Assembly (NCBI GenBank): GCA_049598575.1
Contig: JBMYNT010000001.1
Span: 8,758 to 72,757, forward strand
Reading direction: 5' to 3'
Length of the DNA stretch: 64,000 bases
Source: Candidatus Poseidoniaceae archaeon
Lineage (GTDB): Archaea > Thermoplasmatota > Poseidoniia > Poseidoniales > Poseidoniaceae
The translations under genes and the position numbers were made by a program. The notes under the pieces were generated by a model. The model was not told where the DNA came from and did not search any database. It saw nothing but the letters and a program-made list of their open reading frames with translations. Shown in pieces: positions 4,780 through 59,841 of the stretch. Numbering within the stretch: position 1 is the stretch's first letter; the number at the start of each line of letters is the position of its first letter.

Positions 4780-5052
4780 ATGTCGAACAGTACAGAAATC
4801 CCCGATGCAGTCATTGGAACTGCTGAACCGTCATCAAGCCGCGTCATTCTCGTTCTCCTTTCTGTGGTAACGGTTGGAATGTTTGGACTCTTTAGCACAA
4901 TCTTCGGATGGGACAACATCCCAGTTGTTGGTGACATTGTCCCACTGATGTCGAATCTAGGAGGCTCAGGAATCTGGTACTACTTGCTTGGGTTCATCAT
5001 CGGCCTCGGGGCGATTGTGTCCACACTTGCAGGCGAGGTCCTAGCAGATTGA
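4780..5052 (+). CDS. Small membrane protein (2 TM)
   Basis: 90 aa with two hydrophobic helices. Its stop sits 1 nt before the next gene start, and a GGTGAT sits upstream of that start. Confidence 0.5.
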   Translation: MSNSTEIPDAVIGTAEPSSSRVILVLLSVVTVGMFGLFSTIFGWDNIPVVGDIVPLMSNLGGSGIWYYLLGFIIGLGAIVSTLAGEVLAD

Positions 5053-52548: not shown

Positions 52549-53538
52549 GTGATAAGGCAACCAACGTTGTTGTGCTCTATGGCAAAGCGTTCCGAGGATG
52601 ATTCCTCACTCGGAGGTGCTCGACAACGTGCGAGTACTGCAACATCTGCCTTCGGTGTCTCGAAGCGAGAGAGCCATGATTCGTCCACGTATTACAACAG
52701 TCGGATGAATGCGAATCTTGCATCGAGTCGTGATGTTGGTTCACCTCAGAACTTGCCAGAGCAGTTTGAGAATGTCGTCCTCGAACAGGACGCTCGCTCT
52801 TTACCAATGCCAGACAACTGTGTTCAATTGGTGGTCACATCACCACCGTACAACGCTTCGAAGGTGTACGATGATGATCTCTCCTTGCAAGAATATCTTC
52901 GATTGCTCGAGGAGGTGTTTTCGGAATGCTATCGCGTCCTTTCTCCTGGTGGGCGCATGGTCGTGAACGTTGCCAATCTTGGACGAAAACCGTACATCCC
53001 ACTCTCGACATACATCAACAACATCATGCTTAATCTTGGATTCTTGATGCGTGGTGAAATCATCTGGGATAAATCAGCGAGTGCTGGGTCATCGTGCGCC
53101 TGGGGTTCCTTCCAGAGTGCATCAAATCCTTGCTTGCGAGACATTCACGAATACTTGCTCGTGTTCTCAAAAGGTGATTACAAGATGCCACGTTCGAAGA
53201 AAGAGCGTGAAAACGGTCGAATAGATACCATCGAAAAACAGGAATTCATCGATCACACAAAATCGATTTGGAGATTTGCAACGGAACGGGCGAGCCGTGT
53301 CAATCATCCTGCACCATTCCCCGTCGAGCTACCACGACGTTGCATTGAGTTGTACACGTTTGCGGGTGATGTTGTTCTCGATCCGTTCAATGGTTCTGGA
53401 ACAACCTGTGTTGCAGCCAAACAAACAGGAAGAACCTACATCGGCGTTGATCTGTCATCCGAGTACTGCCAGATAGCAGAGGAACGACTCAAACAAACGC
53501 CTGAATTCGAGATGCCCGAATCAAAACCCGTGGCCTAA
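52549..53538 (+). CDS. DNA methyltransferase (N4-cytosine/N6-adenine, beta class; DNA_methylase_N-4/N-6 domain)
   Basis: (S/D)PPY-type motif VVTSPPYN followed by a C-terminal FxGSGTT SAM motif (LDPFNGSGTT). An extra N-terminal region of about 50-60 aa lies upstream of the core; the start is uncertain (52549, 52579 or 52705). Confidence 0.7.
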   Translation: MIRQPTLLCSMAKRSEDDSSLGGARQRASTATSAFGVSKRESHDSSTYYNSRMNANLASSRDVGSPQNLPEQFENVVLEQDARSLPMPDNCVQLVVTSPPYNASKVYDDDLSLQEYLRLLEEVFSECYRVLSPGGRMVVNVANLGRKPYIPLSTYINNIMLNLGFLMRGEIIWDKSASAGSSCAWGSFQSASNPCLRDIHEYLLVFSKGDYKMPRSKKERENGRIDTIEKQEFIDHTKSIWRFATERASRVNHPAPFPVELPRRCIELYTFAGDVVLDPFNGSGTTCVAAKQTGRTYIGVDLSSEYCQIAEERLKQTPEFEMPESKPVA

Positions 53539-54893: not shown

Positions 54894-55682
54894 ATGCCGG
54901 CTAAGCCATATGCTCCAAGTCACATTGGTTCCGTAGCGTCTACGTACACATCGATGAGGATTGCAGGAGCAGTCAAGGATTCACTCGTTGATTTGGTCTG
55001 TGAAGAATTGGACCGTCTTGTACCTTTGATGGAGGCTGCTACGCTCGATAACGATGCGGAGCGTAAGACACTCGATGATGCACAACGAACCCGGTTGAAT
55101 TACAATCGTACACGTGAACTCATGATCGATCGCATCAAACATGTCGAATCAGTAGGATCTGCTGCAGTCCAAGGTGGAATTGAACATCTTGAGAAATTCC
55201 TTGGCCGATTGATGCGACATTGTGAGGAAGCTGCGAGTCGTGATCGAGTTTCGACCATCAAGCCTCGCCATCTTGAAATCGCGCTCCATTCTATGGGTAA
55301 AGGGACCTCTTCCACAGAAGATGAGGAAGAAGAACATCAGGAGGAAGAAGGTGTTGAAGTTCAGGGAGGTGGTATCATCACCATCACCCATGTCAAATCA
55401 ATGTCTCGAACCCATGCGAAAATGGCCATCACAGATGATGCTGCTGAAGACCTTCTTCTAACGTACGGAGACATGGTTTCCGAACTTGAGAGCGACATTC
55501 GCAAGCATGCGAATCTTGGGCGAGATCCAATGTACTTCATCGATTCCGTTAATCGCCTAAGTGCCTTGATGGCTTTTGGTTGGATTCGACGCATGCTGAT
55601 GAAGGCTGCCGACAATGCTCGAGAACGAGGTTACTCTCGTATCGACATTGAACAAATTGTTCACATCGATCCGTTTGAGTGA
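54894..55682 (+). CDS. Putative tandem histone-fold (doublet) protein
   Basis: Two segments fit helix-loop-long helix-loop-helix with the R-x-T/S-I-K-x-x-[HD]-[LI]-E-[IL]A motif of archaeal histones (RVSTIKPRHLEIAL and YSRIDIEQIVHI), separated by an acidic EDEEEEHQEEEG linker. By-eye assignment only. Confidence 0.4.
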   Translation: MPAKPYAPSHIGSVASTYTSMRIAGAVKDSLVDLVCEELDRLVPLMEAATLDNDAERKTLDDAQRTRLNYNRTRELMIDRIKHVESVGSAAVQGGIEHLEKFLGRLMRHCEEAASRDRVSTIKPRHLEIALHSMGKGTSSTEDEEEEHQEEEGVEVQGGGIITITHVKSMSRTHAKMAITDDAAEDLLLTYGDMVSELESDIRKHANLGRDPMYFIDSVNRLSALMAFGWIRRMLMKAADNARERGYSRIDIEQIVHIDPFE

Positions 55683-56545
55683 CCATGTTGCTTACGTCGA
55701 TTCTTCTCTCTGCATTGTTTGCAGGAATCGTTGCGACATTGGTCACGATTGCAATCGAGAAGTTTGGTGGTCGAACAGGGGGCGTTCTAGCAACCATTCC
55801 AACAACCATCGTACCTGCAGCGCTTGGAATGTACAGCATTTCCGGAGAGACTGAATTTGCTCAATCGATGTCGATTGTTCCTCTCGGTATGATGGTGAAT
55901 GCAATTTTTCTTTTGGTATGGATTCATGCACCTCAGAGATTTGGTTTGTCCCTTGTTGGAACAACGATTCTCTCTCTGATTGTTTGGACATTGATTGGAA
56001 GTCTAGGGCTTCTTGTTTCGAGTGAATTGCAAGCATCCGGTGTTGATGCATTGACCTATGCAGTTTCTGGATTAGGGCTGCTTATTCTCCTTGGTGTTTG
56101 GACGACGTGGACTTCTCGTCCAGCTCCGAAAGGAAGTCGTTCGGTCCGTCCATCGGTGCTTGTTTTGCGTGGTTCTGCCGCTGCAACAGCCATTGGTATC
56201 GCAGTGTGGTTCTCAAGCCTCTCGTATCCATTTGTATCTGGATTGGTCAGCACGTTCCCAGCAATCTTTCTGACCTCGATGATTGCGTTGTGGCTCGCAC
56301 AAGGCCAAGATGTACCTCAAGGTGCAGCTGGACCAATGATGCTCGGTGGGGCGAGTGTAGGCGTCTATGCCGTGGTTGCTATTGTTCTCTTTCCAATGCT
56401 CGGGCCGGTTATGGGTTCGATTGTCACCTGGTTGATTTCGATCGTTGCGTGGACCATTCCGGCCTACATCTATCTTCAATGGCGTCAATCGTTGACAAGC
56501 CTTGACCAACGTTCCGAAGCAGGAACGTCAACGATCTCGAGTTGA
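55679..56545 (+). CDS. Membrane protein (about 8 TM)
   Basis: Hydropathy only. Confidence 0.5.
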   Translation: MTMLLTSILLSALFAGIVATLVTIAIEKFGGRTGGVLATIPTTIVPAALGMYSISGETEFAQSMSIVPLGMMVNAIFLLVWIHAPQRFGLSLVGTTILSLIVWTLIGSLGLLVSSELQASGVDALTYAVSGLGLLILLGVWTTWTSRPAPKGSRSVRPSVLVLRGSAAATAIGIAVWFSSLSYPFVSGLVSTFPAIFLTSMIALWLAQGQDVPQGAAGPMMLGGASVGVYAVVAIVLFPMLGPVMGSIVTWLISIVAWTIPAYIYLQWRQSLTSLDQRSEAGTSTISS

Positions 56546-56781
56546 AGAGATTCAACGCCTTTGATTTCAGAGAGGTGACGACGTAAGGCTCGTGCATCGA
56601 TGAGACAGCACGGACAATGCGGCCGTGAGGGTTGAAAGCGAATACGAACATTGCCTTCTTCAGAGATGTTGACCGCTTGGACATAGGTTGACTCTGTGAG
56701 TGGCTTGTCCATGTGTGGATCTTGCCAATTTCCCATCGCTTTAACCAAGCGACGCTGAAGCTTTTTCTGCAGACGATTCAT
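56485..56781 (-). CDS. DUF59/MIP18-like Fe-S cluster assembly domain protein
   Basis: 98 aa with a P(H)CPC motif; ATGA overlap with xseB suggests coupling. Confidence 0.5.
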   Translation of the reverse strand: MNRLQKKLQRRLVKAMGNWQDPHMDKPLTESTYVQAVNISEEGNVRIRFQPSRPHCPCCLIDARALRRHLSEIKGVESLQLEIVDVPASERWSRLVND

Positions 56782-56999
56782 TCCTTCTTCGCCTCTTCAA
56801 TCATCGCTTCCGCTTCAGGCAAACGCAGGTTTTCGAGACGTCCCTCAGCTTCTTTCAATTCGGCTTGACATCGTTCAAGCAATTTCGAACCTTCTTCGAA
56901 TCGTTCGAGTGTGGCTTCCAAATCCATTCCGCCTCGTTCAAGTTCTGCTACGATGGCTTCCAGTCGTCGTAATGCATCGGAATAGGTCTCTTCGGTCAT
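56778..56999 (-). CDS. xseB: Exodeoxyribonuclease VII small subunit
   Basis: 73-aa helical hairpin (ALRRLEAIVAELERG...LE..LE.FEEG..L); overlaps xseA by 4 nt. Confidence 0.7.
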   Translation of the reverse strand: MTEETYSDALRRLEAIVAELERGGMDLEATLERFEEGSKLLERCQAELKEAEGRLENLRLPEAEAMIEEAKKE

Positions 57000-58243
57000 G
57001 TTTCTTCCTCGTGTTGTCGTATGTTGTCAATGTTTGCGTCGGCTTCACCGTCCGCAAATTGAAGTGAAACAGTCTGTCCTTTGCTGAGTTTCGAAACGCT
57101 GGAGATGACGTTCCCATCACCATCAACACCCATCATGTAACCTCGTTCAAGGACGCGTTTTGGATGAGAGATTTGCAAAGCATTTCCAAGGACAGCGAGC
57201 CGCTGCTTGTGATATTGGAGTGCGGATGTGGTGCGCTGTTGAAGATCGTTCCCGAGTCGTTCGAGATGACGCACTGCTTGAGAGAGGCCTTTGCTTGGAG
57301 CGAGTTGCAATCGAAGTTTGAGTTGTTCAAGTTGTTGACGTGCATCGTTGAATTGGCGAAGTGAACCCTGCAACATTCTGTCTTCGCAATCCATGAGATA
57401 GGCCAAATGGTCGTCAACCAACGGTATGCAACGTTCAACAGCATGACTTGGTGTTGAAGCTCGAACATCAGCGACAAGGTCGCTGACGAGGATGTCCGAT
57501 TCGTGTCCAACTGCAGAGATCACAGGCATGGGCATGGCAGCAATAGCACGGGCTACAGGTTCAAGGTTGAAGGCCCACAAGTCCTCTGGAGAACCGCCGC
57601 CGCGACCAACGATGACAACGTCGCATGGAGGGACTGCGATGGCATCAGCGATGTTGTTTCGGCTGAGTTCTCGTGCAACGGCGAGTCCTCGAACAATTTC
57701 CTCAGCAGCACGGTCACCTTGCACAGTGACGCCTACCACAGTCGTTCGGATTCCCGGCCATCTGGATTGCGACAGTTGCAACATATCCGCCAAGGCTGCA
57801 GAACCTTTTCCTGTCACAATCACGAGATGTTTTGGGAACGATGGGAGTGATTTGCGTGGTCGATCAAGAACGCCTTCTTGACGGAGTTGAAGCAGAAGTT
57901 TTTGCTTCTGTTGTTCCAATGCCCCAATCTTCTGGATGAGCTCGATACGTTCGACTACAATCTGCAGTTGCCCTCGGGCCGGATAGAGGTCAACACTCCC
58001 AATGACGAGAACTTCCTGTCCGTCTTTGATTCCATCTGGGATTCGGCAGCGTCCTTTCCAAATGACTGCACTAATTTGACCACCATCGTCTCGTAGACTA
58101 AAGTAGGTGTGGCCTGAAGGATATGGCTTCCACTGACTGATTTCACCTTTGAGTAAACAATGCTGATTGCGATCATCAGAGCGTAATCGTGCTCGTAATG
58201 CTTGGACAAACTTGCCAACAGGGGTTGGTTCAATTTCGTCCAT
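56996..58243 (-). CDS. xseA: Exodeoxyribonuclease VII large subunit
   Basis: N-terminal OB fold (VWKGRCRIPDGIKDGQEVLVIGSVDLYPARGQLQIVVERIE), catalytic region (VVIVGRGGGSPEDLWAFN) and a C-terminal coiled coil. Confidence 0.8.
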   Translation of the reverse strand: MDEIEPTPVGKFVQALRARLRSDDRNQHCLLKGEISQWKPYPSGHTYFSLRDDGGQISAVIWKGRCRIPDGIKDGQEVLVIGSVDLYPARGQLQIVVERIELIQKIGALEQQKQKLLLQLRQEGVLDRPRKSLPSFPKHLVIVTGKGSAALADMLQLSQSRWPGIRTTVVGVTVQGDRAAEEIVRGLAVARELSRNNIADAIAVPPCDVVIVGRGGGSPEDLWAFNLEPVARAIAAMPMPVISAVGHESDILVSDLVADVRASTPSHAVERCIPLVDDHLAYLMDCEDRMLQGSLRQFNDARQQLEQLKLRLQLAPSKGLSQAVRHLERLGNDLQQRTTSALQYHKQRLAVLGNALQISHPKRVLERGYMMGVDGDGNVISSVSKLSKGQTVSLQFADGEADANIDNIRQHEEET

Positions 58244-58749: not shown

Positions 58750-59841
58750 TCAACGGCCTGGCTTGTTACGGGTCCAACGTCCCGTTTGCTTGTTGAAGAA
58801 CAATCCTGCCTTCTTCATCCACTTGTTGAACTTGGTTGCACCCGCACCCGTACGGAGAATGAAGTCTTCTCGGTCTTCTTGTGCTTGGATGTAGCCCTTC
58901 ACCGCAAGGGTTTGGTCAATCCAATCGTTGATGTCCATCAGACCGCCACTGAGACCAGTGGATTCGATTTCAGCACTGATGAGATCGGCTGTTGCTCCAG
59001 TTGCTTCGAGATCCTTACGGAGTTGCTCGTTCACATCGGCAAAGCCCATGTTCGCTGGTTTCGGAGGAACAGGATTTCGTGGAGGCTTGTCGACATCGAT
59101 TGTGATTCGAGAACCGTTTTCGAGGCGAGTGTTGACCATATCGCTGAGTGATGGCGTGAAACTGGTTTCACATTCCCAGCAGATGAGAGCGAAGTCTTCG
59201 CTTCGGTCCATGTCTCGAGATTGACGAGGATCCATCTCATCTCCACATTCTGGGCAAGCGTGGAAAATCAAGGCAGGAACGTGCTTGCGACGGAAGTCGA
59301 CAATGTCTTGCGGCGTACCTTCAAGCTCGAGCATTTCGTGGTCACGAGCGGCTTCCAAGCCACGGGTTTCGAGTTGGTCTCGAATCTTGACCTTCTGGTC
59401 GTCCTTGCCTTCATCATCAAGACTGTTCTCGAGTTTAACAATGAGCTCAACGGTTTTACCGAGTCGGTTCATGATGAGTTTCTTGTCTTTGAATGCAGTG
59501 ACTTTGGCGAGTTTGATGCGCTCTTTCTGCTCTGCAAGTTCGCTGAGAACGTCCTTCTGCTTGCGCTTGAAACGCATTTCTTCGATACGACTTTCTTGCT
59601 TGCGATCAGGTGCGAGAACCTTGGCCAAGAATCGTTCTTTTCCGTGGCTTTGTGGTCCTTCTGCAATAATGCTGATGACACCTTCAGCGATGTCTTGCTT
59701 GAGGCCATAGTTTTCGACGAGCTTTTCAGCATCGATCTTTTTCAAATCGCCAATTTTCAAACCTGCATCAGCGAGCAGTTGTGCGGTTGAGTCGTCGATA
59801 CCTCGACGAAGTAGTGCAAGATAGGTGTCTTTCTTTGCCAT
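58750..59841 (-). CDS. Hypothetical HhH plus C4 zinc-ribbon nucleic-acid-binding protein
   Basis: Two N-terminal helix-hairpin-helix-like motifs (LLADAGLKIGDL), a central CPECG...CWEC ribbon and a basic C-terminus. Confidence 0.5.
   Translation of the reverse strand: MAKKDTYLALLRRGIDDSTAQLLADAGLKIGDLKKIDAEKLVENYGLKQDIAEGVISIIAEGPQSHGKERFLAKVLAPDRKQESRIEEMRFKRKQKDVLSELAEQKERIKLAKVTAFKDKKLIMNRLGKTVELIVKLENSLDDEGKDDQKVKIRDQLETRGLEAARDHEMLELEGTPQDIVDFRRKHVPALIFHACPECGDEMDPRQSRDMDRSEDFALICWECETSFTPSLSDMVNTRLENGSRITIDVDKPPRNPVPPKPANMGFADVNEQLRKDLEATGATADLISAEIESTGLSGGLMDINDWIDQTLAVKGYIQAQEDREDFILRTGAGATKFNKWMKKAGLFFNKQTGRWTRNKPGR

Follow-up and report, generated by a model that had tools for sequence, protein, structure and literature searches.

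Identity of the gene and the family to which it belongs

The gene at positions 54894..55682 (+) of the 64,000-nucleotide stretch of Candidatus Poseidoniaceae archaeon DNA analyzed here (contig JBMYNT010000001.1; "the window" below means this whole stretch) encodes a histone-fold protein, almost certainly an ordinary ortholog in the single-chain multi-histone-fold family that is specific to Poseidoniales/Poseidoniia and was catalogued already in surveys of 2024 and 2026. The corrective value of our analysis lies in the domain map, which becomes an N-terminal histone pseudodimer, an acidic linker and a reduced C-terminal histone-like module. Family identity, this anatomy and a mechanism in which the protein would organize DNA, taken together, form the best explanation overall, and one that we consider fairly likely; the fold assignment and the conservation pattern were established in silico, and the activity is what we infer.

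As judged from the list of open reading frames (ORFs) and from homologues, this multi-histone-fold gene is complete (789 nt, 262 aa plus stop). The ORF begins at the first possible ATG downstream of an in-frame TGA, which bears out the original prediction, and the family alignment opens at the same M(P/A)AKPY as the called start; antisense or out-of-frame ORFs overlapping 54894..55682 were unsupported. Among 5.8 billion proteins searched, 369 relatives were retrieved at E ≤ 1e-3, the full-length ones mostly of ∼260 to 280 aa, from Poseidoniaceae and Marine Group II (MGII) metagenome-assembled genomes (MAGs). Taxon names on the close homologues were usually Poseidoniaceae, Poseidonia or "Euryarchaeota archaeon" (one was labeled Crocinitomicaceae), and several homologues had been named "histone H3/H4" by the Joint Genome Institute. 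An alignment of 60 family sequences, on which all statements of invariance below are based, had 57 invariant columns and a mean column identity of 60%, and the gene is under clear selection.

The closest link to the published family is PBET01000012.1_36 (MGIIa-L2 sp002719815), to which the protein is identical at 242 of 262 residues (92%) without gaps, and which carries the label "Single 5" in the source data of Laursen et al. (PMC13260811). These authors (Nat Commun 2026, PMC13260811; bioRxiv 2025) defined "cluster 5, acidic quadruplets" as 130 sequences predicted to have four histone-fold motifs per chain, exclusive to Poseidoniales and one related genome and in every case the only histone gene present; their predictions have the N terminus as an intra-chain histone-fold dimer and the C terminus as an inter-chain dimer (PMC13260811). 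The published cluster 5 medians (262 aa, isoelectric point [pI] of 5.2, grand average of hydropathy [GRAVY] of −0.35, instability of 46; PMC13260811) agree with the length, pI (5.35), GRAVY (−0.44) and instability (44.2) of the protein from the window. According to Supplementary Table 4 of Laursen et al. (PMC13260811), cluster 5 is the same as the category that Schwab et al. 2024 (Nat Commun, supplement) named "Poseidoniia double" and described as a double histone plus C-terminal domain, formerly a double fold. Family, length, pI and taxon are the same, as are the N-terminal intrachain pair and the degenerate C-terminal histone-like part, and we see no substantive difference; our independent analysis arrives at the published picture and refines the description of the family. 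Given the 92% identity to a protein of MGIIa-L2, the window probably derives from a Poseidoniaceae genome in or close to that genus.

The family is narrow: from 1.84 billion cluster representatives, an exhaustive profile search recovered just 98 clusters, and many of these were fragments. Full-length relatives at ∼20% identity (P0167, P0173, P0174, P0182 and others) have the same three-part layout, and the motifs KT(L/I) and (R/K)TIKxRH survive in them. The genes of this distant clade (L001, 9074-9859; L006, 2766-3518; L007, 3001-3771; L008, 3001-3768; L009, 3001-3786) encode the N-terminal pseudodimer, the acidic linker and the C-terminal module. They come from MAGs titled "Thermoplasmatota archaeon" or "uncultured archaeon", one of them from the Eastern Tropical North Pacific (ETNP), bear precomputed PF00808 matches, and have folds nearer to those of canonical HMfB. 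The family may predate Poseidoniales. In the part of the Laursen et al. table available to us, MGIII genomes are entered as "No histones" (PMC13260811).

Evidence for the histone fold

Searched as a single sequence, the protein gave matches under the gathering cut-offs: PF00125 against residues 68 to 132 (E = 4.5e-4, 20.9 bits, cut-off 26.4) and PF00808 (E = 0.12, 13.1 bits, cut-off 21.4). NCBIfam yielded no match to the 262-aa protein, and the single sequence against the Protein Data Bank (PDB) retrieved noise only. Family-wide, PF00125 was matched by 56 of the 60 members and PF00808 by 21 (E ≤ 0.01), and precomputed matches to one or the other are present on several orthologs. When the family profile was searched against all PDB sequences it retrieved histones only, the top 60 all being H2A or H2A.Z (best E = 4e-4), and in a library of viral structures the giant-virus H2B-H2A doublets ranked first. 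No confident match to an unrelated helical family, the outcome that would have undone the original prediction, appeared. A search for internal duplication within the Poseidoniales alignment (hhalign, N- against C-half and unit against unit) found nothing significant.

The N-terminal half as one intramolecular pseudodimer

The first histone fold (HF1; residues 8 to 60; 54915..55073, +) comprises, in the AlphaFold2 (AF2) model, helix α1 (8 to 18), loop L1 (22 and 23; M-R22-I-A), helix α2 (25 to 53) and loop L2 (59 and 60; E-R57-K58-T59-L), with no α3. Its L2 is a classic RKT loop, and R22, K58 and T59 are invariant; for comparison with its L1, the corresponding loop of HMfB is E-R19-V-S. In the distant clade HF1 aligns to HMfB residues 1 to 55 (hhalign, E of about 1e-3). 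These residues fall within the N-terminal ∼75 aa that the original prediction had left without an assigned function, an assessment now superseded: the segment is itself a histone fold, because the AF2 pattern of helices and strands over 8 to 60 fits one, with K58-T59 invariant.

In place of the missing α3 stands a conserved, basic junction (residues 61 to 69, DDAQRTRLN; 55074..55100, +) that runs into α1 of the next fold. AF2 renders it as coil with a low predicted local distance difference test score (pLDDT; <50 at 63 to 65). R67 and L68 do not vary among the 60 sequences, R65 and N69 hardly do, and the family profile pairs this segment with the RAGLQF region of H2A.Z. The second histone fold (HF2; residues 70 to 133; 55101..55292, +) has the complete α1-L1-α2-L2-α3 topology in the AF2 prediction (α1 70 to 78, L1 86 and 87, α2 89 to 116, L2 121 and 122, α3 124 to 133), with RVSTIKPRHLEIAL as its L2/α3 motif. 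It corresponds to the fold that had been proposed at residues 76 to 134, and that proposal holds, given the PF00125 match at 68 to 132, its recurrence across the family and the AF2 helices over 70 to 133. Together, HF1 and HF2 of the predicted model superpose on solved doublets; residues 8 to 133 are thus modeled as one intramolecular histone pseudodimer, made of an HF1 without α3 and a complete HF2.

This arrangement bears on the original prediction as a whole, in which the segments 76 to 134 and 190 to 258 would grip each other in a handshake spanning the acidic linker, and an N-terminal domain of unassigned function would stand apart. L2/α3-like motifs do occur in both segments, and the strings quoted for it lie where they were said to lie (RVSTIKPRHLEIALHS at 118 to 133, RGYSRIDIEQIVHI at 245 to 258 and EDEEEEHQEEEG at 142 to 153). 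Its reading as a divergent histone-fold doublet survives in that the protein is a histone-fold protein with an intramolecular pair; the pairing of 76 to 134 with 190 to 258 does not. Nor is there a helix-loop-long helix-loop-helix unit at 190 to 258, where AF2 instead places α1-L1 at 164 to 180, a long helix at 181 to 208, return helices, L2 and a short α3. We consider that model hardly tenable.

Several known doublets resemble the N-terminal half. HMk of Methanopyrus kandleri (PDB 1f1e) has 154 aa consisting of two complete folds and nothing else, and shares 17% identity with the present protein, which differs from HMk and the halobacterial doublets by an HF1 without α3, an acidic linker and a second module of 100 residues; it lacks the combination that marks those doublets (two complete folds, a short linker, ∼140 to 155 aa and no further domain). 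Giant-virus doublets (H2B-H2A and H4-H3; Melbournevirus 7n8n, miniH2B-H2A 9cvt) share 11 to 18% identity and form nucleosome-like octamers; by contrast, no four-helix-bundle tetramer is predicted for the Poseidoniales family (PMC13260811). The bacterial DUF1931 pseudodimers (TTHA1479, 1wwi; AQ_328, 1r4v) are single-module proteins from other taxa, with no sequence relationship detected.

The H2A resemblance of the second fold

Among solved proteins, the sequence of HF2 is closest to eukaryotic H2A and H2A.Z, and the family profile also sets RTRLNY against the RAGLQF of H2A. Compared by hhalign, HF2 matched human H2A with a probability of 86% (E = 4.7e-6), against <6% for H2B, H3, H4 and HMfB, and the two have the string (I/T)PRHL(Q/E)(L/I)A in common (TIKPRHLEIAL in HF2, RIIPRHLQLAI in H2A). 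Along with the run of H2A entries at the head of the PDB profile search and the giant-virus H2B-H2A doublets at the head of the viral library, this might suggest a specific relationship of HF2 to the H2A of eukaryotes or giant viruses, in which case the N-terminal half would be an H2B-H2A-type doublet bearing on the origin of H2A. We regard this as very improbable. HF2 has RTRLNYNRT where H2A has RAGLQFPVG, so that the H2A signature AGLQFPV is absent; S86 stands in place of the L1 arginine; and there is neither a docking domain nor a separate H2B chain. All E-values behind the H2A comparison are marginal. Above all, HF2 of the distant clade prefers HMfB (E = 3.6e-4) and H3 over H2A (4.3e-3; hhalign), and the likeness is therefore lineage-specific, not ancestral. 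On these sequence comparisons the H2A flavor is most likely a lineage-specific convergence that gives no clue to the origin of H2A. Specific H2A ancestry of HF2 was accordingly rejected, the resemblance being absent from the distant clade.

The acidic linker and the charge of the protein

Residues 134 to 153 (55293..55352, +) form the acidic linker that had been proposed from the sequence, and it is real: pLDDT is <50 over 137 to 151, and across the family the segment is 17 to 26 residues long and contains 42% D/E and 2% K/R, with low positional conservation (0.40). It is a disordered tether joining the two modules. Once the linker is left out, the N-terminal half has a neutral pI of 7.0; HF2 is basic (pI 9.1). 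The proteome itself is acid-shifted, with a median pI of 5.15 over the window's 49 ORFs of at least 120 aa, and because of this median the argument that an "acidic" protein should not bind DNA is weakened; the label mirrors the background of the organism and not a special property of this histone.

The C-terminal module

The C-terminal module is preceded by a short β-hairpin (residues 154 to 163, VEVQGGGIIT; 55353..55382, +), with DSSP strands at 154 to 156 and 160 to 162 in the full-length model, in which T163 is invariant and Q157 and G159 nearly so. The module proper opens with a helix-strand-helix (residues 164 to 208; 55383..55517, +) comprising α1 (164 to 174), L1 (178 and 179) and a 28-residue α2 (181 to 208), continues with two return helices (212 to 226 and 229 to 245; 55527..55628, +) kinked at the invariant G228-W229, and ends with L2 and α3 (residues 246 to 258, GYSRIDIEQIVHI; 55629..55667, +), where AF2 has a strand at 249 and 250 and a helix at 253 to 256. 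Residues 153 to 262 were also modeled separately, from a 31-sequence alignment that included distant relatives; this C-half model is a compact unit (pLDDT of 83.6, predicted template modeling score [pTM] of 0.75) and it too has paired strands in the hairpin segment. With ∼1.5 folds' worth of helix, the module has 95 residues against 126 in the N-terminal pair.

By sequence, the C-half profile matched the archaeal histone HmvA (8bdk) best (E = 6e-5), with the alignment split into two colinear blocks: residues ∼161 to 195 pair with HmvA 2 to 36 (α1, L1 and the start of α2), and ∼235 to 258 with HmvA 40 to 63 (the end of α2, L2 and α3). Between these lie ∼39 residues (∼196 to 234) that have no counterpart in HmvA and so exceed what a single histone fold contains. 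Next in rank, at weak E-values, came TAF12, CENP-X and archaeal histone A. Because the C-terminal part is, by sequence, one archaeal histone fold plus ∼39 residues, the term "quadruplet" appears generous. Alignments with the distant clade hinted weakly (hhalign, E of about 3e-4 to 6e-4) at a likeness of the module's start to HF1 and of its end to HF2, which would fit an origin from a single fold that gained an insertion as well as one from a doublet that lost an internal part.

The L1 and L2 strands of the module appear paired within the chain in the monomer model, as they are in the lid (C-) domains of AAA+ ATPases, and 5 of the 60 family members touch the Pfam family Cdc6_lid. On one alternative reading the C-terminal half is not histone-derived and would be a four-helix bundle of the AAA+-lid type, or some unrelated helical domain, that became joined to a histone doublet. 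Alva et al. proposed that the histone fold arose by domain swapping from an AAA+ lid-like arrangement (PMC1847821), and the helix-strand-helix unit is in any case common to lids and histone folds (PMC1847821). Compared with a lid, the module has longer helices, one extra helix and no ATPase core (none was found in the 262-aa protein by Pfam, NCBIfam or PDB sequence searches for a P-loop ATPase core, and the likeness is structural only). Its sequence is nearer to histones, HmvA and then the other histone-fold proteins being its best matches; histone doublets align more of its residues (96 to 102) than lids do; and where the present protein has Y-S/K-R in place of the R-K-T of nucleosomal L2, the last loop of the distant clade is of the canonical RKT type (ERNRKTISIEDI or ERGKKSIDVVEI). 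An origin outside the histones is on this evidence improbable. Residues 164 to 258 are instead, as modeled, a reduced histone-derived module whose closed bundle looks like a truncated doublet as well as like an AAA+ lid.

Proposed function

What the protein does is suggested by its conservation. The canonical DNA-contact positions R22, K58, T59, R72, R74, T121, K123 and R125 are invariant in the 60 sequences, with R65 and R118 nearly so. HF1 has the L1 arginine R22 and R57-K58-T59, and HF2 has S86 for the L1 arginine and keeps T121, K123 and R125. Because DNA-contact positions are among the most conserved residues of the family, and because a pI of 5.35 is no counter-argument, we favor a DNA-binding architectural protein in which the N-terminal pseudodimer would bind and bend DNA, the C-terminal module would self-associate and the acidic linker would tether the two, a tentative reading of the sequence that we hold possible rather than probable.

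In such a mechanism the pseudodimer would be the DNA-binding unit and would bend the single short DNA segment to which it binds. The contacts would be made by R22 (HF1 L1) opposite T121/K123/R125 (HF2 L2-α3), by R57-K58-T59 (HF1 L2) and by R72/R74 at the start of HF2 α1, and the junction arginines R65 and R67 may be listed with the conserved DNA-contact positions. HMfB-type tetramers or hypernucleosomes would not be built. The C-terminal module might self-associate, either closed or swapped between chains, and might provide a second, weaker L1/L2-type site that would allow bridging; the acidic linker would be a flexible tether and possibly an electrostatic competitor for the basic ridge.

Several observations weigh against DNA binding of this kind. 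AlphaFold3 (AF3) predictions and molecular dynamics gave no nucleosome-like complex for cluster 5, nor did a four-helix-bundle tetramer form, and the authors suggest that the proteins "might not bind DNA" (PMC13260811); the published interface pTM (ipTM) for homo-oligomers of the family is only about 0.55 to 0.61 (PMC13260811). In HF2, S86 replaces the L1 arginine of nucleosomal histones and H2A, and the distant clade does not retain R22. Most MGII genomes also encode the chromatin protein MC1 (PMC7613761), and a histone is therefore not needed as the main chromatin protein. Finally, the pTM of the full-length model is only 0.51, so that the relative placing of the N- and C-terminal modules is not fixed by AF2.

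The main rival reading is a non-DNA scaffold, in which the histone folds have been co-opted for protein-protein interaction (compare the Sos histone domain, TAFs and SPT3) and do not organize DNA. We consider this rather unlikely, since the invariant residues occupy canonical DNA-contact loop positions in both folds and at the start of HF2 α1 (R22, R57-K58-T59, T121/K123/R125 and R72/R74), no conserved neighboring gene presents itself as a possible partner, and the low pI is merely that of the proteome. The DNA-binding architectural protein thus remains the reading that we prefer. A more speculative extension, to which we give little credence, is that the C-terminal histone fold may be switchable, lid-like and closed in the monomer, and would open and swap into an inter-chain dimer on DNA or at high concentration. 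If this were true, the switchable module and the DNA-binding pseudodimer could polymerize on or bridge DNA into a non-nucleosomal chromatin fiber in abundant archaea of the surface ocean.

Poseidoniales are among the most abundant planktonic archaea and have no cultured representative, and according to Laursen et al. (PMC13260811) this gene is their only histone-type gene. Whether or not the protein packages DNA would tell how Poseidoniales chromatin works alongside MC1, and also whether single-chain multi-fold histones can function without nucleosome-like oligomers.

Gene neighborhood

The histone-fold gene is set among housekeeping genes. Upstream of it lie genes for an amidohydrolase, phosphoglycerate kinase (PGK), a DNA methylase and an M24 peptidase, the last separated from it by a gap of 49 nt; downstream are genes for a DUF3147-like membrane protein, an Fe-S assembly protein, XseB and XseA, a ferredoxin-like ORF, a conserved gene of unassigned function and KsgA. 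The order amidohydrolase, PGK, M24 peptidase, histone-fold gene, DUF3147, XseAB and KsgA is confined to Poseidoniaceae, where it is kept, methylase and peroxiredoxin excepted, in relatives at 62% protein identity (TARA marine contigs), and an MGIIb-type genome and the distant clade show other gene orders. Since the order is not kept outside Poseidoniaceae, the neighborhood is silent on function, and since no operon partner is conserved across the order Poseidoniales, the gene acts on its own. Searches of all ORFs of the 64-kb window with HMfB, MC1, Alba, H2A and the family profile found no other histone, MC1 or Alba-like ORF.

The DNA methyltransferase gene (52549-53538, +; PF01555 N6_N4_Mtase, E = 1.6e-51) lies between the PGK and M24 peptidase genes and is a strain-variable insertion, because the syntenic loci L003 to L005 have only a 115-nt gap at this place; it is possibly an orphan methylase. 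In the relatives at 62% identity, a peroxiredoxin (AhpC-TSA) gene (6845-7306 of L003) stands between the histone-fold and DUF3147-like genes. In the window the DUF3147-like membrane gene begins right at the histone-fold stop codon (55683-55690), with no peroxiredoxin between them.

XseA (56996-58243, −; PF02601, PF13742) is a bacterial-type exonuclease VII subunit, and with a 73-aa XseB-like ORF (56778-56999, −) it makes up an exonuclease VII pair (56778-58243). The presence of this pair in an archaeal window is shared by L003 to L005, where it is kept. Farther on, a conserved protein of 363 aa and unassigned function (58750-59841, −) has no Pfam match and contains a zinc-ribbon-like CPECG...CWECE pair; at the syntenic place in L003 to L005 there is a gene of 384 aa, also without a Pfam match. 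In the MGIIb-type genome (L010, a 1.59-Mb contig) the ortholog of the histone-fold gene stands alone behind an AT-rich spacer (4960-5020), with a TATAAATA box ∼35 to 50 nt upstream of its start. The start called there (MVLRLN-MAKPW) is probably placed 6 codons upstream of the conserved MAKPW start of the family.
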